IMG/VR virus record: IMGVR_UViG_3300021387_000573
Span: 60,756-124,755 of that record
Strand: one strand, 5' to 3'
Origin: a virus
Taxonomy: Duplodnaviria; Caudoviricetes
DNA length: 64,000 nucleotides
The notes beneath the pieces are model-generated. The model worked only from the letters and a program-made list of their open reading frames with translations. It did no database searches and had not been told where the DNA came from. Each line of letters starts with the position of its first letter. The stretch's first letter is position 1. The position numbers and the translations under genes were made by a program. Shown here one piece after another: positions 4,319 to 62,793 of this stretch.

Positions 4319-7300
4319 TTGGAAACCTTTACATTCGATGCTTATATGGCCTATGGAGACACGGAGAAAACCACCTTCGAGATCAATATTGATCCGCGAG
4401 ATAAGGACCTTGCAACACGCTTGCGCAATGACATTGTAAAGAAGGTTGGAGCGGAGCCCGTATTCTGTAATGATCTGACCGGAGAACTTTGGATGTTCGA
4501 CATGAAATTGGGCGACGGCCTGTGGCTTGAAAACATTCATCCAAGCAACGATCTGAAAACAGTTCGCGCTGGGCTGTATAACGCGGAACATTATCGCCCT
4601 GCTGATTGGAACACCATTCCAACCGTACCGATTGACGAATAGGAGGGAACAATGTACATACACCTGAAAGACGGAACTGGTCGTCTGATCGATAACGATA
4701 ACGCCGAGCGCGAGCTGCGCGACATGCTGGAGGAATACTGCGGCAGGGAAGCGCTGGACTGCCTGGATTACGTCCTGGATCTCAAGACCGACGAGATCGA
4801 AGAAGAATTGAGGAAAGAATATGAGGAATTCGGAGACGATGAGCAAGATTGATACAGAGTTTTCTGGTCTGGTTTATAGATATAGACTTGATAAGGAACT
4901 GCTTGGAAAACATCCTGAGAATAAGGAACTTTTAGAAAGAAGAATCAGCAGACATAAGGATGATATCATTAATCTTGTTACTTCAGATGAGTTTTTGAAG
5001 AACTATAGTCAGAGAATGGGAAAATAAAAGGAGGATTTCATTATGAATGGGATCGATGCGAATGTTGCTTTTATTCCGGTTAGATGTATTTCAACCAGAG
5101 ATTCAAAGCCGGATCAGATCGAGGTTGGCAGAGCATATATAATCGACAGGCTTTCTATCTGGCTTGACGCAGACGGAGATGCCTACGGCGTCGTGTATGA
5201 TGCAGCGCGGAATAGAGTAGGGCAGATGCTTCTGTCCCATTTCACGAGCGTATAAGGAGGTTATATCTATGGATAGTTTCGTTTTAAAGGCATTGAAAGC
5301 TTTAAAATGGCATGATGATCGGCCAGGATTTGATGGAGTGGTCAGGCATTCTACCGGAGTTGACGATGTTTCCGTTTGCGGTACAAGAATCTATATCCGA
5401 TATGATGTAACGGCCAATACTTGCATTGAAAGCGGAATGGACGATGGGACATTTAGCGTTTTCGTTCAATTCCCGAACAATAATTTTATCAAGGAAACGG
5501 TCGGCTCTTTTGAATCAGGGAAGAAAAGATGCGAAGAACTCAGAAAAGAGTTCTGGAACAAGTGGTATAAAGAGATTGAAAGGATGTTCGCATAATGAAC
5601 AGAAAAGATATTAGAATTTGCTCTTGTGGCAGAATCCACTTCATTGATTCCGGGATCATTGACGAGGCGCTTGAACAGAACAAGAATACGCTTGTCATTT
5701 GCGGCGGCTGCGGCAGAACCTATGTGATCGGTGCAGACATTGAACCGGATTGGTACGAGCCGGATAAGATGTGCTACAACATGTATACGAGCACATTGTT
5801 CCACAATGGGAGCGAAGACCCTTATATCTTTGATCAGAAGTTCTTTGAGACAGTAGAAGGGAAATTCAAAGGCTTTCACAAGGTTATCATCGATCCTGGC
5901 AAGAGAGTCATGATGGACACCGGATACTATGCGACTGCCTATGACAACGGCAGCGGTATGTTCTATGACATGCAGTATCCTGATTTCTGGAAGATCAAAA
6001 AGACGGACGAGCTGGAGGATGTTCTGCTTTTCATTAACAAGTTCCAGCGAGATATGAAATCCGTCAACATGAACTGGCTCCTGCGTTCTCTCACGGACGA
6101 AGAGGCGGAACAGCTCTCACACTACGGCGTAAAGGGCCTGAACTGGAAGGGAACAAAGTGGGAGACCGAATATAACAGTCGATAAGGAGGCTTCTATGGC
6201 AAGTAAGAGAAACGCCAGGTTCCTGGATGCTCAGAATTTTATCTATGAACTGCGCCAGAAATGGTATCAAACCGAAGAACAGATGGAACGACACAATGCA
6301 GAAAACGGTAAAGATACAACGTATTATATTCTTCTTGGCCGTTGTGACGCTTTGATGCAGGCGGTAGATATGGCAGAAGAATTCGCAGCCGGCCAGTACG
6401 CTGTAAAGTACGAATAAACAGTAGTAAAGGAGAAATCTATTATGGATTTTATGGATGCTCTGGTTGATGGTTTTGTAGAAGTTCAGAATCAGCTTGAACC
6501 AGACTATGGCTATTTGTGCGATATTCGCGGCAATCCGACAAAGCGCCACCCGATGTCATATCCATATAGTTACGATGCTTATGTAATTTGGGCTAAAGAG
6601 TACAAAGAAAATGATGATGCGGTTTACTCAGACAGGCTCTATCAATGGGATTCAGAAAAGTATGATCGTTGTTGTATGGAAGTGTGGAACGACAGAAGGC
6701 AAGTGTTTAATAGAAGCAATCCCAAGGATATTCAAAAGTTTCTTTCGTTGTACTTTGGGGAAACGGTAAAACTGACTGGAATTGAAAAGGGATGCAACGT
6801 TTCAACTGGATGCCCATATTGGGTATTCTATTATCGAGCCGAATAAAAAGAGGGCAATTCTATGTCGATTCATTGCGATGATATTGATTGCTGTGACTTT
6901 TGCACAGATCTTTCTTGCGATGTCAATCCAAAAATGTTTGCGGCGATGTATGCTATATATAAGTCAAGCGAAGATGATGGCAATGATAGTACAGAATAAA
7001 ATTGTCACTTCATCACGAAAATAAATAGAAATATCGTGCCTTTTAACACGTTTTTCTATGGATAAAGTGCAAAATTTTACACATTATCCGCGTTTATCAA
7101 TAGAGGATTAGAACTGGCAATCATTGTTCATTGAATTATGTAAACTTTGGTGATAATCTTTTGACGTGAACAAAGAAGATCTGATAACTGCATAATTCAA
7201 TGAAAGGGGACTGCAAAATGAAAGAACTGTATACATTCAAGCGGAGCAAGAACGGTGAAATCAGTATCAATCCAGGTGGAAGCTATAAGGATGCCTGTGA

Positions 7301-7682: not shown

Positions 7683-7743
7683 AAGAGCAGGCGGGGACTT
7701 ATCTCTCCGCCTGAAAAATCTTGAAAAATATTTACATAACTTG

Positions 7744-7772
7744 TTGACAAATGCAAAATGTTCTGATAGAAT
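7744..7772 (+). promoter_or_regulatory. Sigma-A promoter carrying the conserved TGTTGACAAATGYA box
   Basis: TTGACA-17 bp-TAGAAT with extended TG. Confidence 0.85.
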
Positions 7773-7867
7773 ACAAGAGGGTCGAACGAAAGACCCGTTA
7801 AAATAGCAAGCAAAACGCAGTCAAAAGAAACTAAATACACAAAATACGGATTGTATCGGGAGGAATT

Positions 7868-15387: not shown

Positions 15388-17718
15388 ATGAACGAAGCAT
15401 TAGCAAAGGTTTTGGATTTTGTTTCAAGGAACGAAGATTATCATTATTCCAGGTTGACATGTGGCGAGAAACAAACAGATGATCTAATGAATACATCTGC
15501 TGCTGTTGCCTTCCAGAAAGTAAGGTATTTTATTGAAGACCTTATGGACGAATGATAAAACGACTGTTTGATTACCACATATACCACAATATATAGATGT
15601 TGAGAAGCGAGTGAACACAATATAATGAAAGAATACATAGAACGAGAGAAGGCTTTGTCTGCACAAAACAAATCCATGAACCTGAACGAGATGCGAGAGC
15701 GTCTGAAACGTATCCCTGCCGCCAATGTGCAGCCGGTGGTCTTCTGTAAGAACTGCGCCGTTCCGCATAACCAATGGACAGGCTGTCCGAAGCTCGGCGG
15801 ACTCGTAACAGAGCCGGACTTCTACTGCGCCTTTGGCGAGCCGAAAGGAGATTTAAAATGATCTACATGGTTGCTAAGCAATATAAAAATGGAGAGCTCA
15901 GATTTATGCATTCTGGGCGATCCAGCACACCATTTGCCACCGAGAACCTGTCTGCGGCAAAAGCTATGGCTACTCACGCGCAGCGCAGTGCGTGGAAGGA
16001 TGTTAGTGAAGTCGTGATTTTTGAATGTGACTTCAGAACAATGGACATCATGGCGATTGATGTTCGCCCGGTTAAGCACACTCCTGCAGAGCCATGGGAA
16101 TTGCAGAGTAATAAAACACAGATTTAATCATCGTATTTTCTCCACGAATTACACTTTTCGTATAATTACTGGAGCAAATATGACTACTTTTCAATAAGGA
16201 GGATGCATGACTCTCACCAAGAAACAGATTGCGGCAATCCAGCGCGTTATTATTAACTGTGTTTCAGATCCGAGACACAAAGATATGTCAGGAGAAGCAC
16301 CTGTGTCGGATGGTATTATCATTACAGATGGGCATGTCTTGCTTCATGCTCCGGAATCTCTCGGATTCAAACAGCAGAATGAATCGGATTCGAAGAGCGC
16401 GGAGCGTATGAACAAGTATTCCCATGCTGCCTTTGATGATTACGGTGCCGACTTCTACCGCGTCGAGGAGCCGATTCCGAACGGAAAGTCATCCTCTAAA
16501 CTTCGTGTCATGCTGAAGGAGCATACCTTCATGTCTGATGATGGGCAGCATGTCGTTGTTTCTTTGTCTTCTCATGATATCAGAGGCGATGAAGTGTGGT
16601 CAGTTTTTGACTACGGCAACCTTGTCAACGCATTTGAAGCTGTTGGCAAAGATGCCATTGCTTACATCGGAAACAGCGCCAACTTACATTGCCCAGAACC
16701 GTATCTGATCATAGAGCCGGAATACGACTATGGCAATTTGAGTCAGGGAATTCACGCAGTTGTCATGCCTTGCCGTACAAGCAGGAGGAAGCCGTGAGAG
16801 ATACTTATTCCGGCGGATACAAGGCCGCGCTCTTGGATGTATATAACTTTCTGGAACGCGGACGACCTATCGAAGAGACATGCAGATCTAAGAAGCAGTA
16901 TCAAACAATGGTGCGTTCTCTTCTGGAATTGCTTCTCCTGGATAGCATCGCCAGAGAAGACTTCATGATTTTTGGTGGTGCCTGCTGGGTGAAGCAAGCG
17001 CCGGACGGCAAGATCCTTTCTGTCAGCGCGAATAAAACAAAGGATTGATCTCGGCTATACATATCAATTATAGGAGGTGCCGCTTATGGCCGAGTTTTGC
17101 AAAGACTGTTTTCTTGAGATCAATCCGTTGAAAGAGAATGAAACCGTCGTCCTCTCCGCGCAAGACGACCTGGATCTCTGCGAGGGTTGCGGGCATTGGA
17201 AGCGCGTGGTCGTCAGGATCAGACACAAGAACATCATTGATAGGCTCAAAGAGAATCATAACAAGAATTGACGCCGTAACAGCGTCATGGTAAAATCAAA
17301 ACACAACATTAGGAGGAAATGAAAATGCAGAAGTATGGTGTTATTAAGACAGTAGGCAATGAGACCACCGTTCTCGAAGTGTGTAGCAGCAAGGAAGGCG
17401 CTTTTGTTGGCAAACAGCGCTACCGTGACGCCTATAAAGGGCAGGATGTGCAGATCGACGCCATCAAGGGCGAGTTCGACGAGAACGGGAAGCTGGTCTA
17501 CAACAAGTACACACTCCTGTACGAGCTCTGAGCATTGTTAAAAAGGAGGCGGCTCGGTTATGTGGTTAATATATGTCATTGGTTTCTTTGCGTTGCTCTT
17601 CTGGCTGGTGGACGGCATCCTGAATGCCACCGGCTGGACTGATCCTAAGGAACGCCGAGCCGCCAAGGCTTTTATCTTCACCAGTATGCTGAACGATAAG
17701 ACGCCGAATGGCAAATAA
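15388..17718 (+). CDS. Small hypothetical genes (15388-15555, 15625-15861, ~15858-16127, 16207-16797, ~16794-17048, ~17086-17271, 17319-17531, ~17560-17718)
   Basis: Tandem ORFs; 16207-16797 has beta-clamp-like motifs (see findings). Confidence 0.6.
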
Positions 17719-17779
17719 AAGAGTGGTTTGATCCGCCTCGGCTGAGGTTGGGGCGGATAAAATTATCTCCACAAAACTG

Positions 17780-17808
17780 TTGACAAATGTAAAATCGTAT
17801 GGTAGAAT
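17780..17808 (+). promoter_or_regulatory. Sigma-A promoter with CTGTTGACAAATGTA box
   Basis: TTGACA-17-TAGAAT upstream of the recombinase gene. Confidence 0.85.
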
Positions 17809-17840: not shown

Positions 17841-18809
17841 ATGAAGAGCATGATCGAAGGCAGCAACGTCTTGAAGCCCGATTTCGGCTGGTACAACGAG
17901 CCGCAGCAAACTGAGATCGTAGAGATTGCCAGCAATGAGAAGCGTGAGCATTGCGGCAAAAGAGTGGGGCAGAAGTCTGAAGTGTTCGCTTACGAACCCG
18001 CCGATGCCGCAAAAATGATTGCCTATTTCGCCTCGCATCAAAAGTGGATTCACTATCTCCTGTTTACGATTCAGACGATCTCCGCCCGCCGAATCGGTGA
18101 TCTGATCGGGTATTGCAGTAAGCAGAGCGGTAAAAAGGAAAGCGACGGGCTTCTCTGGTGTGATTTCTTCCATCCAGCGAACGGCAAGTTTCGTAGAGAG
18201 ATCCGTTCTTTCAAGGAACAGAAGACCGGCAAACTGGCCAGTCCCATGATTCCGGAGGCGATGCGTGATGCCATCACGCTCTATTGCGAGAAAACAGGCT
18301 GTGATCCATCGGCAAACAACTATCAAAACCCTGTTTTTCTCCAGCTTTCCGGGACGCACAAGGGTAAGGTTGTTTCCTATGCAGGCGTTCAAAAGGCGCT
18401 GAAAGAAGCTGCTGCTGCATGCGAGATCGAGTACAATGTCGGCACACACAGCGCCAGAAAGACATTCGGTGCCGCAACGAAAATGCTCCATCCCGGCGAC
18501 GCCTCTTGTATCGAGGCGTTGCAAGGCTACTATAACCATAGTTCCAGTGCTATTACAAACCGATACATTGGTCTGACGAAAAAGAAGACTGACGGTTATG
18601 TTGAGGACATGGGAAAATTCTTCAATGAATACATCGTTGGCGGCAAAGAGATCCCAATGCAGATTGCGTCTCCGGTAATCTCAGTAGATACTGAGGCTCT
18701 GTTCCAGTTAATCCAGCAAGCGTTCTACGCAGGGAAGAACAGCGATGGTTCAAACGACGCAGCTCTTGTCATCGAATTAACCAAGCAGATCAACAACATC
18801 AGGAAGTGA
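17841..18809 (+). CDS. Tyrosine recombinase (catalytic-domain type, no arm-binding domain)
   Basis: RIGDL (R), EQKTGK (K), HSARKTF (HxxR), NHSS (H), RYIG (Y): full catalytic set. Confidence 0.88.
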   Translation: MKSMIEGSNVLKPDFGWYNEPQQTEIVEIASNEKREHCGKRVGQKSEVFAYEPADAAKMIAYFASHQKWIHYLLFTIQTISARRIGDLIGYCSKQSGKKESDGLLWCDFFHPANGKFRREIRSFKEQKTGKLASPMIPEAMRDAITLYCEKTGCDPSANNYQNPVFLQLSGTHKGKVVSYAGVQKALKEAAAACEIEYNVGTHSARKTFGAATKMLHPGDASCIEALQGYYNHSSSAITNRYIGLTKKKTDGYVEDMGKFFNEYIVGGKEIPMQIASPVISVDTEALFQLIQQAFYAGKNSDGSNDAALVIELTKQINNIRK

Positions 18810-18815
18810 GGGAAT

Positions 18816-18974
18816 ATGCAGACGGCAATCATTATAATTCTGGCGGTTGCTCTGGCGGTTGTGAGTTTTCTTTACTACCGCCAGGGGAAACTCCTCGATA
18901 AAATCAGCGCGAAATACATAAGCGACCATCGTTGTTTGCAAAATTTTGCTAAGGCTTTCCTGACAGAAGAATAA
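18816..18974 (+). CDS. Small membrane protein (52 aa)
   Basis: MQTAIIIILAVALAVVSFLYY...; below the ORF-track cutoff. Confidence 0.5.
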   Translation: MQTAIIIILAVALAVVSFLYYRQGKLLDKISAKYISDHRCLQNFAKAFLTEE

Positions 18975-19010
18975 AAATTACAAAACAGTAAAATTTTGTT
19001 GCCAAAACTG

Positions 19011-19039
19011 TTGACAAATGTATAATGTTTTGATATAAT
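19011..19039 (+). promoter_or_regulatory. Sigma-A promoter with CTGTTGACAAATGTA box
   Basis: TTGACA-17-TATAAT with extended TG, upstream of mazF. Confidence 0.88.
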
Positions 19040-19072
19040 GTCATCGAAATCAAAAGAAAGGAAGATGACGTT

Positions 19073-19474
19073 ATGTCGGATCATAGGCAGCAGAGTTATC
19101 CTCGTTGTTATGAGATATGGATGTGCGATCTTGGCAGCAATGGCGTCGGGATACAGAGTGGTTATCGTCCTGTTCTGATCCTGTCAAATGACAGAAATAA
19201 TCTGTTCTCTCCGACAGTTAACGTCGCTCCTCTGACAACAAAAATGAACAAACGTAATCTGCCGGTTCATGTGGAGCTCTGGAACAACAGGGCGTATGGC
19301 CTGCTCTCTCCAAGCACGATTCTGATCGAGCAGCTTACAACTGTTCATGTCAACGCGCTCGACAGAAAGATTGGGCAGATCACGGATGATGAAACGCTGG
19401 CCCAAATTTATACCGCAGTCAGTGTCCAGTTCCCGATCATTCAGGCGTTATCAACTCTTCCTCTTACTTCTTAA
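19073..19474 (+). CDS. mazF: PemK/MazF family endoribonuclease
   Basis: EIWMCDL...QSGYRPVLILSND..N..SPTVNVAPLTT...PVHV...STILIEQLTTV. Confidence 0.9.
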   Translation: MSDHRQQSYPRCYEIWMCDLGSNGVGIQSGYRPVLILSNDRNNLFSPTVNVAPLTTKMNKRNLPVHVELWNNRAYGLLSPSTILIEQLTTVHVNALDRKIGQITDDETLAQIYTAVSVQFPIIQALSTLPLTS

Positions 19475-19488
19475 AGCAGTTATAACTG

Positions 19489-19517
19489 TTGACAAATGTA
19501 ATAAGATACTATATATT
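19489..19517 (+). promoter_or_regulatory. Sigma-A promoter with CTGTTGACAAATGTA box
   Basis: TTGACA-17-TATATT upstream of the MrpR-like gene. Confidence 0.75.
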
Positions 19518-19529
19518 GAGGAAGAGGTG

Positions 19530-20564
19530 ATGACTATGGCATCAAATACGTTTGATGTGTTTGCGCGATTTTGTGAACAGTCCTTTCCAGATGAAACAAG
19601 ACGCGGCAGAATCTACAATCTACTTGCAAGAAAAGAGCTCTTGGAGGAAGAAGCGAAGCTCAATAAAAGCTTCTTTGATTTTTCGGCCAGCGAGATAGAG
19701 CATTATCTGAGCAATTTATATAACAACGCATATCGCCGCAGTGATAAGATTCGCCCATCCAAATCTTATCTCCGCAATCTGGTTAGTTATTATCGCAGAG
19801 CCTTTGCATTCTATCTTGCCGAAACCGGCGGCGGAGAGAACCCATTAGAAGACAAGCGTTTTCGCTATCTTGGATTTAAGAGCCAGGATAATGTCACAAT
19901 TTTTACGAGAGAAACGCTGGAGAACCTTTGCCTTTCTATCGGTGATAGATTCGATCCGGGTGACGCAGAGTTTACACAGCTTATTCTCTGGTTGTTTTAT
20001 TCCGGATGTTTCTCACTGGATGATATCCTTGCTATTCCGCAGGATGGAGTTGACTTTGTAAGGAATATCGTCCACCTTCCAGATAGAAATATTCATCCGC
20101 AAGAGGAATGCATGGAATTGCTGAGGCGGAACCACGAGATTGAGAGTTACAAAGCTTATAAATACACCAATCTAATGTTTCCTTATCACGGCAGTTATGT
20201 GTGGTTCCCGTATCGTATGACGAAGACGCCGGATGGCTCCGATCCTTATGACTATGCCTATCGGCAACACCAAGAGCGTACAGAAGGGCGTGTCAGAGAC
20301 CTGATCAGCAAGCGGCTTACCAAGATCCGTAACGAGATAGGTGTCTTTATTCGCCCAGATGCACTGTACTATCGCGGTATTTATGATTATATCGTTTCTA
20401 AGTGCGGCAAGCAGCATGCTAAGGAAATCATATGGTCAGATACTGGGCGCAATACCTTTGAAGAATCCGATGAGTTTAAGCAATATCTTCGTGAGTATGG
20501 GGCCAGGATAACCGATGATTCAGAGATATACAAAATAAAGCGAAGTCTTTTTGAATTCCTGTAA
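19530..20564 (+). CDS. Recombinase-fold protein lacking catalytic residues; SPbeta MrpR/YopR-like repressor candidate
   Basis: FTRETL...LILWLFYSG..LDDILAI...VDF..NIVHL and LYYRGI patterns; no HxxR; size ~345 aa. Confidence 0.5.
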   Translation: MTMASNTFDVFARFCEQSFPDETRRGRIYNLLARKELLEEEAKLNKSFFDFSASEIEHYLSNLYNNAYRRSDKIRPSKSYLRNLVSYYRRAFAFYLAETGGGENPLEDKRFRYLGFKSQDNVTIFTRETLENLCLSIGDRFDPGDAEFTQLILWLFYSGCFSLDDILAIPQDGVDFVRNIVHLPDRNIHPQEECMELLRRNHEIESYKAYKYTNLMFPYHGSYVWFPYRMTKTPDGSDPYDYAYRQHQERTEGRVRDLISKRLTKIRNEIGVFIRPDALYYRGIYDYIVSKCGKQHAKEIIWSDTGRNTFEESDEFKQYLREYGARITDDSEIYKIKRSLFEFL

Positions 20565-20568
20565 TAGC

Positions 20569-20593
20569 CAATGGGAGCATTTTGCTCCCATTG
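20569..20593 (+). terminator. Hairpin after MrpR-like gene
   Basis: CAATGGGAGC-atttt-GCTCCCATTG, 10-bp stem. Confidence 0.55.
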
Positions 20594-20633
20594 ATGAAAA
20601 AATTAAACGCATTCAAAAGAAACAAAAATCGAG

Positions 20634-21305
20634 GTGAAGGCATTGTCCCTTTGTTATGTGATTGCGGATTCCAGCGGTCGGTATATCATGAAAAACGCAG
20701 CCAATCAGTACGTGCCGGTCTACGATCTTGACTATGCCGAGAAATATGATTCGCCGACAAAGGCAAAGAACGTACTAAATTCCTGTATCAACCGCAATAT
20801 GCGCAAACTTTTCAGCGTAAAAGAAACTGAGATTGACGAGAAAGAAACCGTCACTCGGCAGACCAAGACCGAGCAAACACCAGATATATCGGTCAAGATT
20901 ACATATCGTCCAAAACAGGATCAACTTCGACGGCTGGCGGCACAGGAGGTAGGAGAGGAAGATCTATCGTTCTCTAAGAGCAATATTCTCAGCGCCATTG
21001 GTAATATAGAATCAGTGCGCGAGAGAAAACTTGCGCTCCAAGAGCAACACAGCGTTATCGAAAAAGAGATTATGGACATCGAACACTACATCGAACTGAG
21101 CGATGGTCTGAACGCCTATCAGGGCTGGCTGGCTTACATGACGCTGCGTAAGCGGCTCAAGATACGCCGGCAGGTAAAAGATGAGATCACGGTGCTTTCA
21201 GATGTTGAGGATGTCATGAGCGGTCTGAAGAAAACAATATCTAAGATCAACGGTTTGAATGGACGCAGGTATGAACCTCGTGTTCTGACGGAACTTTTCA
21301 CATAA
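20634..21305 (+). CDS. Hypothetical coiled-coil protein
   Basis: 223 aa ORF. Confidence 0.7.
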   Translation: MKALSLCYVIADSSGRYIMKNAANQYVPVYDLDYAEKYDSPTKAKNVLNSCINRNMRKLFSVKETEIDEKETVTRQTKTEQTPDISVKITYRPKQDQLRRLAAQEVGEEDLSFSKSNILSAIGNIESVRERKLALQEQHSVIEKEIMDIEHYIELSDGLNAYQGWLAYMTLRKRLKIRRQVKDEITVLSDVEDVMSGLKKTISKINGLNGRRYEPRVLTELFT

Positions 21306-21330: not shown

Positions 21331-21404
21331 GGCCGGTTCGTATAACGGTAGTACATCGGACTTTGACTCCGGCAGCGATGGTTCGACCCCATCACCGGCT
21401 GCCA
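21331..21404 (+). tRNA. tRNA-Gln(TTG)
   Basis: Cloverleaf; TCGGA-CT-TTG-AC-TCCGG; GGTTCGA; encoded CCA. Confidence 0.92.
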
Positions 21405-21434
21405 TAAAAAATATAAAATTCTATAATAAAACTG

Positions 21435-21463
21435 TTGACAAATGCAAAACGCTTTGCTATAAT
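21435..21463 (+). promoter_or_regulatory. Consensus sigma-A promoter with CTGTTGACAAATGCA box
   Basis: TTGACA-17-TATAAT with extended TG. Confidence 0.9.
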
Positions 21464-21694
21464 ACAAGAGGGTCAAACGAGAGACCCCATAAACAGAGAA
21501 TCAAATACATTGAAAAGCAACTAAAACCTTGCTGAGTCTAATCTACATATTGTCACTATATACCGTCTCCTTCATAGTTCTCCTTCCGAAATTTAGACTC
21601 AACTAAAACGCAGCAGACGCCTGCTGTAATCCCAGAGTTGCCCATAGGTTGGTGGCACCAGGTCTCTGGGACATAGATTAAAAGGAGAGTCGAT

Positions 21695-21880
21695 ATGACT
21701 TACAAGTTCAAATGCCCGTCATGTGGGAAGCAAACAGAGATCCAGATGCGAATGAGCGAATATCGATCTGACGGCCATATATGTGAGTGCGGTGCGGAGC
21801 TGGTGAGAGATGTGTCAGATATGTGTACCGCCTACTCGCTGAATTGCACCGGCTTCTACTCGGATCATCCGTCGAGGTGA
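21695..21880 (+). CDS. FmdB-like zinc-ribbon protein
   Basis: MTYKFKCPSCG...C.CG; AAAGGAG RBS. Confidence 0.7.
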   Translation: MTYKFKCPSCGKQTEIQMRMSEYRSDGHICECGAELVRDVSDMCTAYSLNCTGFYSDHPSR

Positions 21881-21883
21881 GCC

Positions 21884-22090
21884 ATGATAGATTCTGTAGC
21901 AAGTTTTCTTGAACGGTACGAATGGGGTTATCCATTCGATCAGAACGATGATACCGTTGACCGCGTTGCCATGAAGCGGGAACTTGATCGGCACATGGTG
22001 ATTGTTGAGAACCAGAGGTTTTATGAGCCAATCTCGGTTAAAACGCCGCCGAAAAAGAAAGAGTCAAAACGGCACTTTCTTGGCTGTTAA
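21884..22090 (+). CDS. Hypothetical protein
   Basis: GAGGTG RBS. Confidence 0.55.
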   Translation: MIDSVASFLERYEWGYPFDQNDDTVDRVAMKRELDRHMVIVENQRFYEPISVKTPPKKKESKRHFLGC

Positions 22091-22118
22091 TCAAATCGAG
22101 GTTTTATCCTCGATATAT

Positions 22119-22194
22119 GCCTCATTAGCTCAGTCGGAAGAGCGGCGGCTTTGTAATCCGCAGGTCTGGAGTTCGAATCTCCAATGGGGCTCCA
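22119..22194 (+). tRNA. tRNA-Thr(TGT)
   Basis: Cloverleaf; anticodon loop TT-TGT-AA; CCA. Confidence 0.9.
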
Positions 22195-22510
22195 CGGCCT
22201 TCATGTGCTGCCATCTATCGGTAGCGATACATGCGAAATGATACATACGTCGAGCGGGCCTTATAGGCGGGGCGTTAATCACAGGGGAAGGACACACGCC
22301 ATGCCCTGTCGCTCAAAATGTCCTTCAAAAAGATGCCATCCTGTCTGTGCAGAGACAGGTGAGGGGCTGCACTCCCCAAAAGGTTCAAGGGCTATCCTTA
22401 AGTGCCTCGGACACCTCGCCCGTTGAGGAGGGAAGTGCTGGTAAGTGCGGGTAAACACCAGACGCCAGAACATAAGGGCATATGGAATGGCAACAATCCC
22501 GATTTTATAT

Positions 22511-22597
22511 GGGTCGGTATACCGTATGTGGAAGCGGTGCGGGCTGTAAACCCGTTGGCTAACGCCTCAGTTGGTTCGACTCCAACGCGGCCCACCA
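22511..22597 (+). tRNA. tRNA-Tyr(GTA)
   Basis: GCGGG-CT-GTA-AA-CCCGT; long variable arm; CCA. Confidence 0.88.
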
Positions 22598-22695
22598 TCA
22601 ATCGACCATAAGTGCTTCTCCCGCGCTTTCGGTTGGTCGTCAGGAGTAAGGTGTGCAATCCTGAGAAAATCGTTTGTGTACACCAGGGAGAACAC

Positions 22696-22771
22696 GCGCC
22701 TGTAGCTCAGTTGGTAGAGCACCGCCCTTTTAAGGCGGGTGTCCGGAGTTCGAACCTCCGCAGGCGCACCA
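22696..22771 (+). tRNA. tRNA-Lys(TTT)
   Basis: Canonical cloverleaf; CCGCC-CT-TTT-AA-GGCGG; CCA. Confidence 0.95.
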
Positions 22772-22776
22772 TATTG

Positions 22777-22853
22777 GGGCCGTTAGCTCAGTCGGTTAGA
22801 GCAGTTGACTCATAATCATCAGGTCCTGGGTTCAAGTCCCAGGCGGCCCACCA
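22777..22853 (+). tRNA. tRNA with CAT anticodon, probably Ile2 (lysidine type)
   Basis: GACT-CAT-AATC; GGGCC acceptor and overall sequence resemble ileX-type tRNAs. Confidence 0.85.
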
Positions 22854-23208
22854 CTCCAATGGGGTTGTGTCCCGGAGGAGAAACAGATTAGTCATTCGAG
22901 AAACCGTCAGTGGAGCCGATCTTACGAGGAGGTCTGCGTAGAAGCTGCGGAGGCGCGATCCCGATCTCTGTAACATTCTCCACCATGGCAGAGACGGTTC
23001 AGCGAAAACAATGCTTTCGCGATAGTGTGGATAACGAGAGCTGCCGGTTCGTTTCAACGGCTTTTGGAATCGGCAAACGCTTGGTTTATGCGGCGGTGCG
23101 CAACGCGATAAACCCGTATTCAGCAGAGCGAGTAGATCCTGCTGGCTGGCTGCGTGAGCCAGGTAGAGCTTGCCGCCGGAGTGAGTGAAAGAAACGCATC
23201 CGGCATCT

Positions 23209-23293
23209 GCCCTCGTGGTGGAACTGGTATACACATACGGCTTAAGTCCGTATGCCGCAAGGATTGAGGGTTCGACTCCCTCCGGGGGCACCA
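23209..23293 (+). tRNA. tRNA-Leu(TAA)
   Basis: TACGG-CT-TAA-GT-CCGTA; long variable arm; CCA. Confidence 0.93.
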
Positions 23294-23481
23294 GAAGGCC
23301 GGTTCGATTCCGGATCAATGATAGAGGGCATGGTTGCGACGGGGTTCTCCGGGCAGGATCGGAGATGATGTGTGCCGAGTCAGATGGCGTCTCTCGGCTA
23401 ACCTTCGGGCTTGACCCGACAGTAGGACAAGATCCATCGTCATGGTAAGGACGATGTAAAACGGCCAGAGATTCCTAATAT

Positions 23482-23557
23482 CCAGGGCGAAGTGTAATGG
23501 TTTTGCACTCCACATTTGGGATGTGGAAGAGCGGTTCGATTCCGACGCCTTGGGCCA
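23482..23557 (+). tRNA. tRNA-Pro(TGG), atypical (weak T-stem)
   Basis: CCACA-TT-TGG-GA-TGTGG; acceptor CCAGGGC/GCCTTGG; CCA. Confidence 0.7.
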
Positions 23558-23560
23558 TAC

Positions 23561-23651
23561 GGCGGCTTGGCAGAGCGGCAATGCACCCGACTTGAAATCG
23601 GAGGTCTGGCCTAGTAAGTCAGCAAAGGTTCGATCCCTTTAGCCGCCGCCA
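23561..23651 (+). tRNA. tRNA-Ser(TGA)
   Basis: CCGA-CT-TGA-AA-TCGG; long variable arm; G73-CCA. Confidence 0.92.
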
Positions 23652-23773: not shown

Positions 23774-24100
23774 ATGAAGAAAAAGCGTTGCGGGAGGCCA
23801 AAGATAGAAATGAATTCTGATGAATCTATGCGTGCTATAGACGCCGTAATAAAAGACCTTATATTACATATTCAGGAGCTCGAAGCCGAAAATGCCTCCC
23901 TTCGCGATAAGGTTTATCGGCAATCACATAAGTTGACTGCATTGGCAAACCGCGCACAGGAGTTGGATGTGAAGAATATTTATTTGTGTCATAAGATAGA
24001 GGTTGCAATTCAATATATCAAGGGTGCCTGTTACGATGATGGGATGCGAAATAGAACGGTTAGGCGATTGTGGAAAGCGCTTGATATTCTTGGAGGTTAA
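23774..24100 (+). CDS. Hypothetical coiled-coil protein
   Basis: ORF; start uncertain. Confidence 0.55.
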   Translation: MKKKRCGRPKIEMNSDESMRAIDAVIKDLILHIQELEAENASLRDKVYRQSHKLTALANRAQELDVKNIYLCHKIEVAIQYIKGACYDDGMRNRTVRRLWKALDILGG

Positions 24101-24756
24101 GAAGAGAATTGGCGATAGCCTTTAGCCATAGACGGCCTGTAAACACATTTCATGAGAAGAATCTTTTTCATAGAATCGTGGTAATGGTATTTTTCTTTTT
24201 CGCCATTTAGATATCTTTTGTATTCTGAAAATCTGTATTCTGCGGCTTGCCTTGATAGACCATAAACGCGTTCAATATCTTCTATCGTATGAATTTTAAA
24301 AAGAGAGAAGGTTGGGAACGGTGACAATAAGGATGCCGCAAAAAAGTCTGCTTCTTCTTCCAATTCGTGTCTATCGAAATAAGAAGATAGACGCTTTTCA
24401 TTGGACGCATCACATATCTCATCGAAGTGCCCGCAAATAACATGTCCAAATTCATGGGCAAACGTCCATCTAATTCTATTGTAACTTGACGTAAACCTGG
24501 ACGACTGATTTGCGAGGATTAAATATCTATCTCTTGATGAATCGTATTGTGTGCATCCGGTGTAACTTTTGCAGGCAGCAATTACATCATGAAGAGATGT
24601 GCTACTGATTTGCGCAAGGTCATAATAAGACATCGCTCGGCAATTCGGATAAAGCGATATGGCCATTTTAGGGTCCAATGGAAATTGGATGCGATCTAAA
24701 TTGCAGAAAATAGTTAAGATAGCATAATCTACTCGATCAAAAATAAAGTCTCGCAA
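24097..24756 (-). CDS. ImmA/IrrE family metallopeptidase
   Basis: RWTFAHEFGH (HExxH); EEEADFFAASLL. Confidence 0.9.
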   Translation of the reverse strand: MRDFIFDRVDYAILTIFCNLDRIQFPLDPKMAISLYPNCRAMSYYDLAQISSTSLHDVIAACKSYTGCTQYDSSRDRYLILANQSSRFTSSYNRIRWTFAHEFGHVICGHFDEICDASNEKRLSSYFDRHELEEEADFFAASLLSPFPTFSLFKIHTIEDIERVYGLSRQAAEYRFSEYKRYLNGEKEKYHYHDSMKKILLMKCVYRPSMAKGYRQFSS

Positions 24757-25101
24757 TTAGGAATCATCTCCAAATGCATATTTAAAACCAGCTTTAATGA
24801 TATTCATTGCCTGCTCCCAGTCTTTCTCAGGCATGTTTTGCTTGGCTCGCTGGAGAGCAATGATACTCTCGTCTCCCAAGACTTCTTTAGCACCAGCCTC
24901 GATATCAGAGCTTCCGAGAAGAAAATCGACAGACACGCCGAGATATTCGGCAACCTTTCTAATCATGCTGGAACGCGGATCAGACACCTTCCATTTATAA
25001 ATTACGTTCGCACCAAATCCGAGTTCTGATTCAAGTTTTGAAACAGTAATCCCATTCTTTTCACAGAGCGTTTTGATTCTTTCGAATGTGATATTAGACA
25101 T
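24757..25101 (-). CDS. XRE family HTH repressor (ImmR/CI-like)
   Basis: RIKTLCEKNGITVSKLESELG...KVAEYLGVSVDFLLG. Confidence 0.9.
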   Translation of the reverse strand: MSNITFERIKTLCEKNGITVSKLESELGFGANVIYKWKVSDPRSSMIRKVAEYLGVSVDFLLGSSDIEAGAKEVLGDESIIALQRAKQNMPEKDWEQAMNIIKAGFKYAFGDDS

Positions 25102-54403: not shown

Positions 54404-54675
54404 TGGATCAAGAAATCATCGAACTCGAAAACGAATTCATTGTGCTGGCCGTTCCGAAAAATACGGTCGAAGTTACAATTTCTGCAAAGGTCTATCACGA
54501 TGGCAAACTGCAAGATGTCCATAGGACTATGGACTTCCAAGAAGTACGCGATGCATTTAAAGAAGCGGAGCAAGGATATATCCCGTCTGATGCCGTGTTC
54601 TCCTTGACTCCGCTCGGGGAGAAGTATGCAGAAGAACTTATTAAAAAGCAGAGAGGTCTGTTTGAGGAGGAATGA
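54400..54675 (+). CDS. Hypothetical protein
   Basis: Coupled ORF. Confidence 0.65.
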
Positions 54676-54679
54676 GAAT

Positions 54680-55939
54680 TTGATTTATGGTATTAACGAC
54701 AAACCGAGCGTAGGCAAGACATTACTCTTTGGTTTACAGCTTATGCTTAGTGTGTTTGTGGCTTCAGTGCTTATTGCAAATATCTGCGGTGTTTCTGTCA
54801 GCGGCGCTTTGTTTGGTGCCGGCCTCGCAACCATTACCTATCTGGTCACAACGAAATGGCAGTCTCCCATGTTCGTTTCCAATAGCGGTGCTTTTGTCGC
54901 TCCGGTTCTGATCGCATTGGCGGCTGGCGGGTATCCTGCTGTAGCTGTTGGCGGCTTAACGACATGCCTTGTGTACTGTGCCTTTGGCTATATTTTCTCA
55001 AAAGTTCCGGTCGATAGGATTTACGAAGTCTTTCCGAAAGCACTGATCGGTGCCGTCACGATGGTAATTGGAATCACGCTCATGGGATTTATCGGTACAT
55101 ACGTTCAGGTAGGAGGGGAAACAAATATATGGGGAATCCTGATTGCATTGTTCACCGCTATCGTTATAGCGGTTACAAGCCACTATGCGAGAGGGATGGC
55201 GAAGATCCTGCCTTTCTTGATCGGTACGCTTGCCGGTTATGTATTCTCGATTATCTTGTCTATCGCTGGGATCATCAAGATCGTAGACTTCAGTGTGTTT
55301 CAGAACATGACGCTGATTGCAATGCCTGATCTCGCATTTACGCATTGGGGAACAGGCTTCGGATTTAATGTCGCATCCATCGTTGTCATTTATATCGCTT
55401 TTACAATCAGCGCCATGATGGAATGCCTCAGCGATCACGCGGCTCTTGGCAGCATTATCGGCACAGATCTATACAAAAAGCCTGGACTTGGCAGGATTTT
55501 TTCCGGAGAAGGTCTGGCAAATCTTGTTGGGTCCGTGCTCGGCGGCCTAGGCATCTGTTCCTATGGCGAGGGTGTTGCCTGTGTTGGTTATTCCATGGTC
55601 GCGTCAACGATCGTAACGGCAACTGCCGCCCTGATGCTTATGCTTCTTTCGTTTATCGCGCCAGTACAGGCGTTCATCGCGTCGATCCCAAGCTGCGTAT
55701 TTGGAGGAGCCGCCATCGTTCTCTATGGCTTCATTGCCTGTTCCGGCGTCAAGATGCTCCAGCAGGTTGATCTGAATAACCAGAAGAACCTTATTATGGT
55801 GTCCAGCGTTCTGTCTCTTGGCATCAGCGGGCTGGCCATTGGAGGTGCTACCTTTGCCATCAGCGGAACTGCGCTTGCGCTAGTGTTTGGCGTTGTTCTG
55901 AATCTTATCTTAAAGGAGAAAGAGATTGAAAAAGTTTAA
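54680..55939 (+). CDS. NCS2 family nucleobase (uracil/xanthine) permease
   Basis: About 12 TM helices; GLQ, SNSGAFV, ECLSDH, SYGE, IPSCVFGG motifs of the UraA/PyrP family. Confidence 0.88.
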   Translation: MIYGINDKPSVGKTLLFGLQLMLSVFVASVLIANICGVSVSGALFGAGLATITYLVTTKWQSPMFVSNSGAFVAPVLIALAAGGYPAVAVGGLTTCLVYCAFGYIFSKVPVDRIYEVFPKALIGAVTMVIGITLMGFIGTYVQVGGETNIWGILIALFTAIVIAVTSHYARGMAKILPFLIGTLAGYVFSIILSIAGIIKIVDFSVFQNMTLIAMPDLAFTHWGTGFGFNVASIVVIYIAFTISAMMECLSDHAALGSIIGTDLYKKPGLGRIFSGEGLANLVGSVLGGLGICSYGEGVACVGYSMVASTIVTATAALMLMLLSFIAPVQAFIASIPSCVFGGAAIVLYGFIACSGVKMLQQVDLNNQKNLIMVSSVLSLGISGLAIGGATFAISGTALALVFGVVLNLILKEKEIEKV

Positions 55940-59332: not shown

Positions 59333-59398
59333 ACGCTCGATATATGGTATAATTACTAATACATATATGTGGCGGCTTCTACCAATGGGAGGTGCAAA

Positions 59399-60556
59399 AT
59401 GGTAACAGGAAGCCTGCAAACAAAGAAAAACATCTATTACGCCGTGTTGAATCTTGAAGATGAAAACGGCAAGCGCAAACAAAAGTGGATATCAACAGGG
59501 TATAACACGACCGGGCACAACAAAAGAGCGGCGAAGAAAGTTCTTGATGACTTGATCGACAAATATGAAAAAACGCCAAAACCGATGCGGGTTCCATGCG
59601 GCGATATGTTCTATGAGTACGCAGAGAATTGGGTCTCTACGGCAGAGTTTATTTATGATCCCGTGACTTATCAGGGGTATAAGAGCGCCGCACAAAACCA
59701 TATAATTCCATTTTTCAAGAAGAAGAACATTCGGCTTTGCGATGTCACGCCAGAGGTAATCCAAGCATTCTCAACACATTTGTCCAAAGATGGGAATCTG
59801 AAAACTGGTGGGAAGTTATCTGGCAAATCTGTGCGGAACTATCTCACCGTTTTAAGCCAAATTTGCGAAGATGCCGTAGAGAAAAAGAAGATTGCAGAAA
59901 ATCCTGTGAAATTTGTCAAGAAACCGAAGAAGGTAAAATATAAACCTTCATTCTACGCCGCCGGTCAAATGCGACAGTTGTTTTCTGAAATCGATTCGGA
60001 ACCGATAGCGCCACTTATAATAGTGACCGCTGTTCTTGGGCTCAGGCGCAGCGAGTTGCTTGGGCTAAAGTGGGATAGTATTGATTTTGAAAACAAAGAA
60101 ATCACGATCAGGCATGTTGTCTCTAAGTTTTCCACTATTGTCGAAAAGGATGACACGAAGACAGAAGAGAGCCACAGAACATATCACATGACTCCACAGA
60201 TTGAAAAAATCTTCTTAGAAGCAAAGACGACAGAAGACCGGAACAGGAGAATGTTTGGCGACCATTATATTGAAAACGACTATGTTTTTAAGTGGGATAA
60301 CGGGAAACCATACGCGCCGGATTATATTTCTCGTAAGTTCAAAAAGATTCTCAAGAAGTATGGTCTTCCAGTAATCCGCCTTCACGATCTTCGACACTCC
60401 TGTGCGAGCATCCTTCTTGAGTCCGGACACAACCTCAAAGATGTTCAGCAATGGCTTGGCCATTCAGATATCCAAACCACAGGAAATGTCTATGGACACT
60501 TAACAAACGACCATTTGAAGACTGTTGGAAACGATATTTGCAATGAACTTTTCTAA
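59399..60556 (+). CDS. int: Tyrosine integrase with arm-binding domain
   Basis: GLRRSE, HDLRH, LGHS, VY; N-terminal GKRKQKWISTG. Confidence 0.95.
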   Translation: MVTGSLQTKKNIYYAVLNLEDENGKRKQKWISTGYNTTGHNKRAAKKVLDDLIDKYEKTPKPMRVPCGDMFYEYAENWVSTAEFIYDPVTYQGYKSAAQNHIIPFFKKKNIRLCDVTPEVIQAFSTHLSKDGNLKTGGKLSGKSVRNYLTVLSQICEDAVEKKKIAENPVKFVKKPKKVKYKPSFYAAGQMRQLFSEIDSEPIAPLIIVTAVLGLRRSELLGLKWDSIDFENKEITIRHVVSKFSTIVEKDDTKTEESHRTYHMTPQIEKIFLEAKTTEDRNRRMFGDHYIENDYVFKWDNGKPYAPDYISRKFKKILKKYGLPVIRLHDLRHSCASILLESGHNLKDVQQWLGHSDIQTTGNVYGHLTNDHLKTVGNDICNELF

Positions 60557-60574
60557 GTGCACTTTCCTGCACTA

Positions 60575-60871
60575 TGTTAGAACTTTTGTTAGAACAGTTG
60601 GACGCGATTCATAAATTGCCTTGAAAAGTTTAAAAAAGTCGCCAATTTCTTTCAAAATCAGCGACTTTTTGGTCGGAGTGGCGAGACTTGAACTCGCGGC
60701 CTCATGGTCCCGAACCAAATATCAGATATCAAATGTGGTCAAATCTTGTTAAATCCATACAAAAGTAGTGCGATTGATATTCACAAAATGGCTTTGACCT
60801 TGTGCGATTTGACGAAATTAAACAAGAATTAACTAAATTTAAAACACATTCGTTAGAACTGTGTTAGAACT
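60575..60871. other. attP: core = 3' half of tRNA-Pro(CGG) (60670-60717, - strand), flanked by arm-type repeats
   Basis: Reverse complement TGGTTCGGGACCA...GAGTTCAAGTCTCGCCACTCCGACCA, with no 5' tRNA half; paired GTTAGAAC direct repeats at 60576/60588 and 60852/60863. Confidence 0.85.
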
Positions 60872-60981
60872 GACCGCCACATATATGTATTATATTTATA
60901 TGCATAAATTTGATTGGAGCACTTGTAGTATCTTATTACATTTGTTAGTTGATTGCAAGGTTGCAATGAAATTTATAGCGC

Positions 60982-61023
60982 AAAAAATAAGGGTCTTCTA
61001 TAGTAGAAGACCCTTATTTTTTT
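60982..61023 (-). terminator. Bidirectional intrinsic terminator
   Basis: AAAAAATAAGGGTCTTCTA-tag-TAGAAGACCCTTATTTTTT. Confidence 0.85.
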
Positions 61024-61710: not shown

Positions 61711-62793
61711 TTATTTAAGCAGCTCTGCCCATGTTTTAGGGCCAACAACACCATCAATTTCAAGCCCATGTTCGCGTTGGAACCGAAGAACTGCTTTGTA
61801 TGTATTCCAGCCAAACTTGCCATCAGCGCCATAAGAACCACATGAGTATCCGAGCGCGACCAGTTTTTCTTGGAGTTCTTCAACAGAAGGACCTTTAGAA
61901 CCAAACCTTAAAATTGGCTTTTCTGGACTTGACATGGTTGGCGTTTTGGTGTCCTGCTGAGCCTTCTTATTCAGGAGTTCTTCAATTTTCGCCCAAGTTG
62001 CATGACCAACGATGCCGTCTACAACGAGGCCATTCTCATCCTGAAATTTATTTACCGCTTCCAGTGTTTCATCGCCGAAATTGCCGTCCGCACCATAGCG
62101 CGGCAGAGAATAGCCGAGTTCTATCAACTTCTCCTGAAGCTCTTTTACATAAGAGTTATTGTCGCCTTTTCGCAGGTTGTACTTATCGGGAGTAGTCACA
62201 GACTGTTCTGGTGCAGTTGTTACAGGTTGTTCAACATCGCTTTCGTCACTATCGTTGTCACAGACAAGTTCATATCTTGGGCGACCGTACCCGGCAATAT
62301 AGGAACTGTTAAGGTTGTATGTTCTGCGAGCTACCATATCAGAGGTATTGCCCTCAATGGTAGTAACGGTTGTAGCGGAGACGGACTCCACAACACCCGT
62401 GTGCCCGATTTCTCCACCAGAGCAGAAGAATATCTGGTCGCCAGGTTGCGGGTTAGATGTATGCCATCTACCAATATTTTTATAATACTGAGCAGAATAC
62501 ATACAACCTGCACCTGCGCTCTTCTGTGGTTGGCATAGAACTTGCATAGCGAGATCAGCTCCCCATGCCTTATAGTGGCACCAGTCGTTGAACATATCAC
62601 ACCATGCATACCCGTTTTTCCAACCATTGTAGAAATTAGTTATAGCATCGAGGTCTCTTGCATACTTTGTATAGTTCCCAGATCCTGCATTAACAATCTT
62701 GTCGTCGAGCTGGCTGTTGCTTGCCTTCTCGCGATATCCGATTTCGCCTCGTGCGATACTAAGAATCTTCTCAATCGCTTCTGCTTTTGTCAT
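61711..62793 (-). CDS. Endolysin: CHAP domain plus two PG_binding_1 domains
   Basis: AWCD, GHTGVV, IEGN; repeated LQEKL..LGY...GADG.FG..T..AV..FQ...GL..DG.VG..TW. Confidence 0.92.
   Translation of the reverse strand: MTKAEAIEKILSIARGEIGYREKASNSQLDDKIVNAGSGNYTKYARDLDAITNFYNGWKNGYAWCDMFNDWCHYKAWGADLAMQVLCQPQKSAGAGCMYSAQYYKNIGRWHTSNPQPGDQIFFCSGGEIGHTGVVESVSATTVTTIEGNTSDMVARRTYNLNSSYIAGYGRPRYELVCDNDSDESDVEQPVTTAPEQSVTTPDKYNLRKGDNNSYVKELQEKLIELGYSLPRYGADGNFGDETLEAVNKFQDENGLVVDGIVGHATWAKIEELLNKKAQQDTKTPTMSSPEKPILRFGSKGPSVEELQEKLVALGYSCGSYGADGKFGWNTYKAVLRFQREHGLEIDGVVGPKTWAELLK

Follow-up and report, generated by a model that had tools for sequence, protein, structure and literature searches.

The gene cluster that begins at position 17841 of the viral DNA analyzed here (the window, 64,000 nucleotides long, being the last 64 kb of the 124,755-bp IMG/VR virus record IMGVR_UViG_3300021387_000573) is read, at roughly even chances, as an SPbeta-type (sro-like) lysogeny module with a built-in MazF endoribonuclease. 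The module consists of genes for a tyrosine recombinase, a peptide of 52 amino acids (aa), MazF, a recombinase-fold protein here called X, and a 223-aa protein, and X would be the repressor of a set of promoters that share a sequence box. The phage MazF is probably part of a dormancy switch, since nearly all the related phages that were examined have the mazF-X pairing too. The host MazF pushes phi3T and SPbeta towards lysogeny. A lineage that has fixed its own MazF beside an SroF-type repressor would represent a compact two-gene version of that circuit, and would extend the integrase-fold repressors from Bacillus phages to the large phages of gut and clostridial anaerobes. An initial annotation of the DNA had marked four open reading frames (ORFs) in this cluster, and all four lie on the + strand at the positions then given.

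The identification of X is central to this reading. The gene occupies 19536–20564 on the + strand (342 aa). An alternative start at 19530 (344 aa) is less well placed, its ATG being too near the Shine-Dalgarno sequence GAGGTG, and the homologues begin with MA.NTF, in agreement with the start at 19536. Alone, X matched the Pfam family MrpR_N_CB with an E-value of 0.056, and single-sequence searches of the PDB and (by tblastn) of cultured phages were empty. With a profile, 172 relatives of 320–345 aa were collected from 1.8 billion representatives. Among the 144 relatives that were aligned, 41 matched MrpR_N_CB (best E-value 3e-5, all below the gathering score) and 12 matched Phage_integrase. 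The X profile missed MrpR in the PDB, and scans of the SPbeta genome and of phiCD211 with the corresponding hidden Markov model found nothing. With hhalign, the X family was matched to YopR with a probability of 72% (E 3e-5, residues 10–197 on 4–184) and to CST030, the YopR homologue of Clostridium phage c-st, with a probability of 89.5% (E 2e-6). YopP was also tried as a relative of X and was rejected (hhalign 0.1%), and X has no profile match to the recombinase of the module.

An AlphaFold2 model of X, built on the 144-sequence alignment, reached a mean confidence (pLDDT) of 93.6 and a predicted template-modeling score (pTM) of 0.85; an earlier model from five sequences had been poor (pLDDT 59). 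When the model was searched with Foldseek, ranks 1 to 7 were taken by phi3T SroF with DNA (E 8e-9), SroF with Sar, MrpR (2e-7) and YopR, followed by the Tn1549 integrase, XerA and Cre. VIA, an aligner independent of Foldseek, gave the same order, with a Z score of 18.2 for SroF (287 residues, root-mean-square deviation 4.8), 14.6 for MrpR/YopR, and at most 12.7 for true recombinases (the Tn1549 integrase, 12.7). The best structural matches are the PDB entries 9RD5, 9RGL, 8A0A and 8BJ6. In the 144-sequence alignment, the columns with at least 90% conservation include no Arg and no His, so that X is catalytically dead and cannot be an active recombinase; in the hhalign alignment to YopR, the position of the first catalytic Arg falls on Y157/S158/G159. 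X is thus a protein of the SroF/MrpR fold without the active site of a recombinase, which bears out the initial description of this ORF as an MrpR-like, catalytically dead recombinase-fold protein.

The promoters of the cluster provide the second line of evidence. On the + strand, a sigma-A promoter close to the consensus precedes the recombinase gene, another mazF and a third X, and over the -35 hexamer all three have a common box of 16–18 bp, with the exact 16-mer ACTGTTGACAAATGTA. The recombinase promoter (17776–17808 including the box; promoter 17780–17808) is a TG-extended TTGACA-17-TAGAAT matching the consensus in 11 of 12 positions, and the X promoter (19485–19517 with the box; promoter 19489–19517) is TTGACA-17-TATATT, also 11/12. 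That mazF has a promoter of its own, as had been noted before, is plain: it is a perfect TTGACA-17-TATAAT with TG, 12/12 (19007–19039 with the box; promoter 19011–19039). The cluster opens with a GC-rich hairpin (17731–17758), after which come the three single-promoter units, and a stem-loop with compensatory changes in relatives follows the stop codon of X on the + strand (20569–20593). Neither hairpin has a clear U-tract, and neither was among those listed by a terminator scan. Six matches to ACTGTTGACAAATGTA with at most three mismatches occur in the window, where 0.7 would be expected, a number not attained in any of 100 shuffles. A candidate box, AACTGTTGACAAATGYA, is present in 10 copies in the 125-kb record, each 5' of a gene and in the same orientation as the gene; ATGTA, found in the copies of the cluster, is replaced by ATGCA in the seven others. 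In nearly every locus of the related phages, recombinase, mazF and X each have a near-consensus promoter, and when the flanks of these promoters were compared without the hexamer, their similarity was higher inside one locus (0.51) than from locus to locus (0.40; permutation p ~5e-4). This likeness fits a locus-specific operator, but would also follow if the promoters had a common ancestor. Two of the window's box-type promoters (7740–7800 and 21431–21490) have downstream of them a 5' hairpin leader in common, ACAAGAGGGTC(R)AACGA(R)AGACCC.

Why would a phage carry its own MazF? In SPbeta, the dead recombinase MrpR (YopR) is the master repressor and binds SPBRE at nine sites (PMC10516654). SroF recognizes, as a monomer, a 26-bp box present at many sites, and loses its activity through the antirepressor Sar (10.1101/2025.11.27.690993). 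In phi3T, the host MazF is blocked by the phage proteins AimX and YosL and, once freed, promotes lysogeny (PMC10769878); host MazF has been reported to degrade most phage messages while the sro operon is spared (10.1101/2025.11.27.690993). By analogy, X would be a monomeric repressor that reads an asymmetric box, of which about 10 copies stand at early promoters of the 125-kb record, and its binding there would keep the lysogen from expressing the recombinase, mazF, other early operons and X itself. MazF would be the built-in counterpart of the host MazF exploited by phi3T: produced soon after the phage has infected the cell or been induced, it would cleave messages of both phage and host, and so shift the balance in favor of repression by X. 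In turn, X would turn off the promoter of mazF. Control of MazF would thus be mainly transcriptional, possibly with help from a small protein that differs between clades (in this phage, the membrane peptide of 52 aa). We infer that MazF may have been internalized for the lysis-lysogeny decision, which fits the phi3T literature; no paper was found that describes a MazF encoded by a phage and paired with a repressor of this type.

The likeness to the sro operon (yopM–yopR of SPbeta and phi3T, in which SroF, MrpR and YopR are the same protein) lies in the integrase-fold, catalytically dead repressor architecture that X shares, in the tyrosine recombinase gene upstream in the module, in the repeated box at promoters across a large genome, and in the link between MazF activity and a repressor module. 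However, MazF is encoded by the phage here and by the host there. The sro operon has six genes, including those for XRE (YopO), integrase-like (YopP) and ParB-like (YopQ) proteins, and the window module is not so built; there is one promoter per gene instead of one operon, and the recombinase is not specifically YopP-like. X is only 13–17% identical to SroF/MrpR, and the host is an anaerobe, not Bacillus.

Clostridium botulinum phage c-st (AP008983, 17500–27700), a large phage that is in culture, bridges the SPbeta sro operon and the window module. The X profile gives weak matches in c-st, CST030 among them, and there the + strand carries the run CST027 (PemK, 220 aa), CST028 (218 aa), CST029 (a YopQ homologue) and CST030 (the YopR homologue). 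CST027 is 30% identical to the window MazF (E 3e-13). The arrangement differs in that two genes, one of them the YopQ homologue, separate PemK from the YopR homologue, and in that PemK has a C-terminal extension of ~90 aa. A PemK gene near an SPbeta-type repressor is thus already present, unremarked, in the c-st annotation published in 2005. A further likeness to SPbeta is seen in the DnaE-type polymerase of the record: it shares 52% identity with the polymerases of phiCD211 and c-st, both large phages of Clostridia, and the one from c-st is annotated in turn as a homologue of SPbeta YorL. The c-st neighbors CST025 (305 aa), CST026 (53 aa) and CST028 were compared with the window recombinase, peptide and 223-aa protein, respectively, and are unrelated.

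Conservation of the module was followed through X. Look-ups with nine X representatives (24–87% identity) showed a PemK gene directly upstream in eight. A scan of IMG/VR with an X subfamily ~25% identical to the window's X gave 19 loci, mostly on contigs of 100–167 kb, and in 18 of these viral loci, fetched via X alone, MazF lies immediately 5' of X. Over all 29 loci, in which the module genes were found by iterated search of all ORFs, MazF is directly upstream of X in 27 (it is present in 23 of 25 when near-duplicates are removed), the recombinase is upstream in 24, and the 223-aa gene is downstream in 23. Synteny of the cluster is therefore strongly conserved, and the extent given for it initially is corrected: the 223-aa gene at 20634–21305 belongs to it too. 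Both exceptions bear on X. In locus L022, a decayed mazF remnant (4452–4974; tblastn fragments only, with no ORF of at least 40 aa) lies between an intact small gene of the W.KYFIG type and an intact X, and in L019, X is found in a different element without MazF. Since X is intact where mazF has decayed or is absent, it appears to work without MazF. Between the window and a related locus (L013), identity is 66% for the recombinase, 80% for the peptide, 67% for MazF and 43% for the 223-aa protein, and only 32% for X, which is thus the fastest-evolving member of the module, as immunity repressors are.

This evolutionary pattern can be explained in more than one way. The strict conservation of the gene pair without any MazE would also suit a toxin-antitoxin pair in reversed order, in which X represses its own gene and binds MazF, the whole being an addiction or stability module of the prophage (relatives such as c-st being plasmid prophages). 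Antitoxins usually evolve faster than toxins, as X does, and the DNA polymerase is closest to those of phiCD211 and of c-st itself. We nevertheless regard such a pair as unlikely, for each gene has its own promoter, X alleles at 32% identity stand beside MazFs at 67%, X persists without MazF, two genes intervene between PemK and the YopR homologue in c-st, and the window phage has a canonical integrase; nor do we know of any recombinase-fold antitoxin. In a related proposal, X would have two roles, as immunity repressor of the phage and as a protein that neutralizes MazF directly (a recombinase-fold antitoxin), so that mazF-X would form a self-contained lysis/lysogeny switch in a lineage of ~150-kb Clostridial phages, with no need for host MazEF or arbitrium; we give it the same low standing.

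The SPbeta-type reading requires a working MazF, and the sequence is consistent with one. The 133-aa product of mazF (19073–19474, + strand) matches Pfam PemK_toxin (3e-21) and PHROG 1936 (5e-24), and its closest solved relatives are S. aureus MazF (7e-17) and B. subtilis EndoA (PDB search, 1e-16 to 1e-17). Among the MazFs of the module, 22 that are not identical to one another all have R32 and T55, which in the alignment fall on the region of S. aureus MazF that contains its catalytic Arg and Thr, and on residues known to be catalytic in the MazF of B. subtilis and of E. coli. The same 22 proteins share the motif Q.GYRPV...SN.KNN...P.T...LP.HV, to which R32 and T55 belong. MazF thus keeps its catalytic residues, and mazF is under purifying selection as an enzyme. 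The PemK fold and these residues are shared with the mazEF/pemIK type II modules, in which, however, a MazE/PemI gene is present; the window mazF has none, has its own consensus promoter, and has as its constant partner the 340-aa recombinase-fold protein downstream.

The absence of an adjacent MazE-like gene had been pointed out initially, the sole upstream candidate being a 52-aa membrane ORF, and wider searches agree. No match to MazE (PF04014) was found across the 125-kb record, the sole match to RHH_1 in it is sub-threshold and ~59 kb from the module, and none of the five module proteins was matched by PADLOC. None of the three findings that would have told against the initial interpretation (an X that lacks the recombinase fold, a cluster without conservation, a cognate mazE) thus turned up. 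As to an RNA antidote, the module region contains no Rfam family except a tRNA and no ToxI-like or other tandem repeats; antisense promoter-like sites reach 9/12 at best, which is chance level, and a hairpin in the 5' leader of mazF shows weak covariation and a consensus energy of -2.2 kcal/mol.

In the interval from the recombinase to mazF there is always a small gene, which differs from clade to clade and whose product could act as an antitoxin of an unconventional kind. In the window this gene encodes a single-pass membrane peptide of 52 aa with a hydrophobic N-terminal helix (18816–18974, + strand), which is kept in the window's clade and is 57–87% identical in four relatives. In other clades the slot holds a ~65-aa GIPK protein, a ~100-aa W.KYFIG protein, GmrSD-like cargo or something else. 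MazF would then not be an orphan, and the small protein would restrain it as AimX and YosL do in phi3T, an idea that is compatible with the SPbeta-type reading. The gene occupies the MazE position, with no terminator-like hairpin before mazF, and some of the small proteins of other clades are encoded 22–80 bp from mazF; AimX and YosL, which mimic a MazE helix, set a precedent for small helical MazF binders (PMC10769878). The peptide, however, lacks similarity to MazE, AimX, Pfam or PDB entries, is membrane-anchored, begins 6 nucleotides past the recombinase stop codon, and is translationally coupled to that gene and not to mazF; in L014, moreover, no ORF of at least 45 aa lies between recombinase and mazF. 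We therefore consider the peptide a quite unlikely antitoxin. Beyond these comparisons, the peptide also had no match in NCBIfam, PHROG or PADLOC. Another 52-aa ORF with a hydrophobic N-terminus and no family match lies at 17560–17718, just 5' of the first hairpin of the module.

Genes of the GmrSD_N/DUF262 type and other variable cargo were seen in the recombinase-mazF slot of some relatives (L017:2503–3681, L022:3079–4131, L035:3197–4090), and because of this the slot may be a hotspot for accessory or defense genes. Toxin-antitoxin systems, and MazF itself, can act in phage defense. With GmrSD-like defense cargo in the same slot, MazF might be imagined as the prophage's weapon of abortive infection or superinfection exclusion against other phages, a role that we think improbable, as the five module proteins lack a PADLOC match and no trigger or antitoxin component was identified.

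Several points weigh against an SPbeta-type module governed by X. The yopM, yopN, yopO and yopQ genes of sro have no counterparts in the window module. The box may be merely the phage's strong early-promoter consensus, an A-rich UP element plus the -35. A separate pair of genes on the - strand, encoding an ImmA-like metalloprotease (24097–24756) and an XRE repressor (24757–25101), constitutes a second, classical switch and could be the real master switch; its coexistence with the cluster had already been noted, and both genes were found. Finally, the suggestion that the MazF cleavage motif would be depleted in the phage did not hold up for UACAU, which is avoided neither in mazF-X nor on the phage sense strand: the mazF-X/flank ratio is 1.06 (21 loci), and UACAU is commoner on the sense strand than on the antisense strand (151 versus 111). 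In this window, a stretch of 1,985 bases from 18915 to 20900 is free of UACAU, where ~2.4 sites would be expected, a gap that is not significant (P ~0.09). An unbiased search for depleted 5-mers and 6-mers in mazF-X gave marginal G-rich words only, probably an effect of composition. Message sparing of the phi3T type is thus not visible, at least if the module MazF cuts UACAU. Since this MazF need not cut UACAU, the result weakens the SPbeta-type reading without refuting it.

The same counts bear on a different role for MazF, that of a shut-off nuclease of the early lytic phase which, like RegB of T4, would degrade host or early phage messages, have no part in the choice between lysis and lysogeny, and stand beside X only as both lie in the early, repressor-controlled region. 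UACAU is frequent in phage messages, and the mazF promoter, at 12/12, is the strongest of the early-box class. Furthermore, other phages of gut Clostridia, without an X gene, carry in their early regions unpaired "MazF-like growth inhibitor" genes (PHROG 1936), also without an annotated antitoxin, although these are at most 45% identical to the module MazF and belong to phages of 50–100 kb that show no X-type gene beside MazF. On the other hand, no RegB-like placement of UACAU at start codons was seen, and the adjacency to X holds while X diverges to 24–30% identity and the genes that lie between recombinase and mazF are freely exchanged. We consider a pure shut-off nuclease somewhat unlikely.

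The first gene of the module (17841–18809, + strand, 322 aa) encodes an accessory tyrosine recombinase, with matches to Pfam Phage_integrase (8.5e-8, above the cut-off) and PHROG 216 integrase (1.4e-13). As the initial annotation held, its active site is complete: the R-K-H-R-H-Y set (R83/R84, K128/K131, H203, R206, H233, Y242) is invariant in 18 homologues, and for this reason the enzyme is probably active. Its proposed kinship with YopP was not borne out (BLASTP E 0.66; hhalign probability 0.65%, with only generic catalytic motifs aligned). The first catalytic Arg is at residue 83/84, and since only ~45 residues precede the catalytic domain, a core-binding domain appears to be absent; a C-terminal extension of ~75 aa follows the catalytic Tyr. 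A canonical integrase with SAM-like and catalytic domains is encoded at 59369–60556 (+ strand), and therefore the recombinase of the module is not the phage's main integrase. Besides the recombinase of the module, the record holds two further tyrosine recombinases.

Of the remaining parts of the module, a conserved DNA element, TTACAAAACAGTAAAA (also TTACAAAnCAGTAAAA), lies just 5' of the mazF promoter (18978–18993, no strand assigned). It is conserved in five relatives, whether coding or non-coding with respect to the small ORF, and may be a second regulatory site. The conserved 223-aa protein, found 3' of X in most loci, is encoded on the + strand at 20634–21305, with a probable start at TTG 20643. 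None of the five module proteins has a ParB-type or helix-turn-helix match in Pfam.

The record as a whole is 81% complete by CheckV, and nearly all of its genes are on the + strand. It encodes an anaerobic ribonucleotide reductase, and this, together with the polymerase, the tRNAs, the ImmA/XRE pair and the integrase, shows that the source is a large temperate phage (~150 kb) of anaerobic, gut-type Firmicutes. Scans of isolate genomes and of IMG/VR with near relatives of X, aimed at the host, gave no match. Immediately 3' of the module, at 21331–23651 of the window, come the eight tRNA genes (Gln, Thr, Tyr, Lys, Met/Ile2, Leu, Pro, Ser), separated by long non-coding spacers; the box-type promoter at 21431 is followed by a long structured leader, then by a 61-aa zinc-ribbon ORF (21695–21880) and seven of the eight tRNA genes. 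On the opposite strand, after the canonical integrase, is a gene for a lysin with CHAP and peptidoglycan-binding domains (61711–62793), and the attachment site may lie between the two, at ~60557–61021. The phage also carries an unusual auxiliary gene, that of a xanthine/uracil permease family protein (54626–55939; Pfam 2.6e-50).

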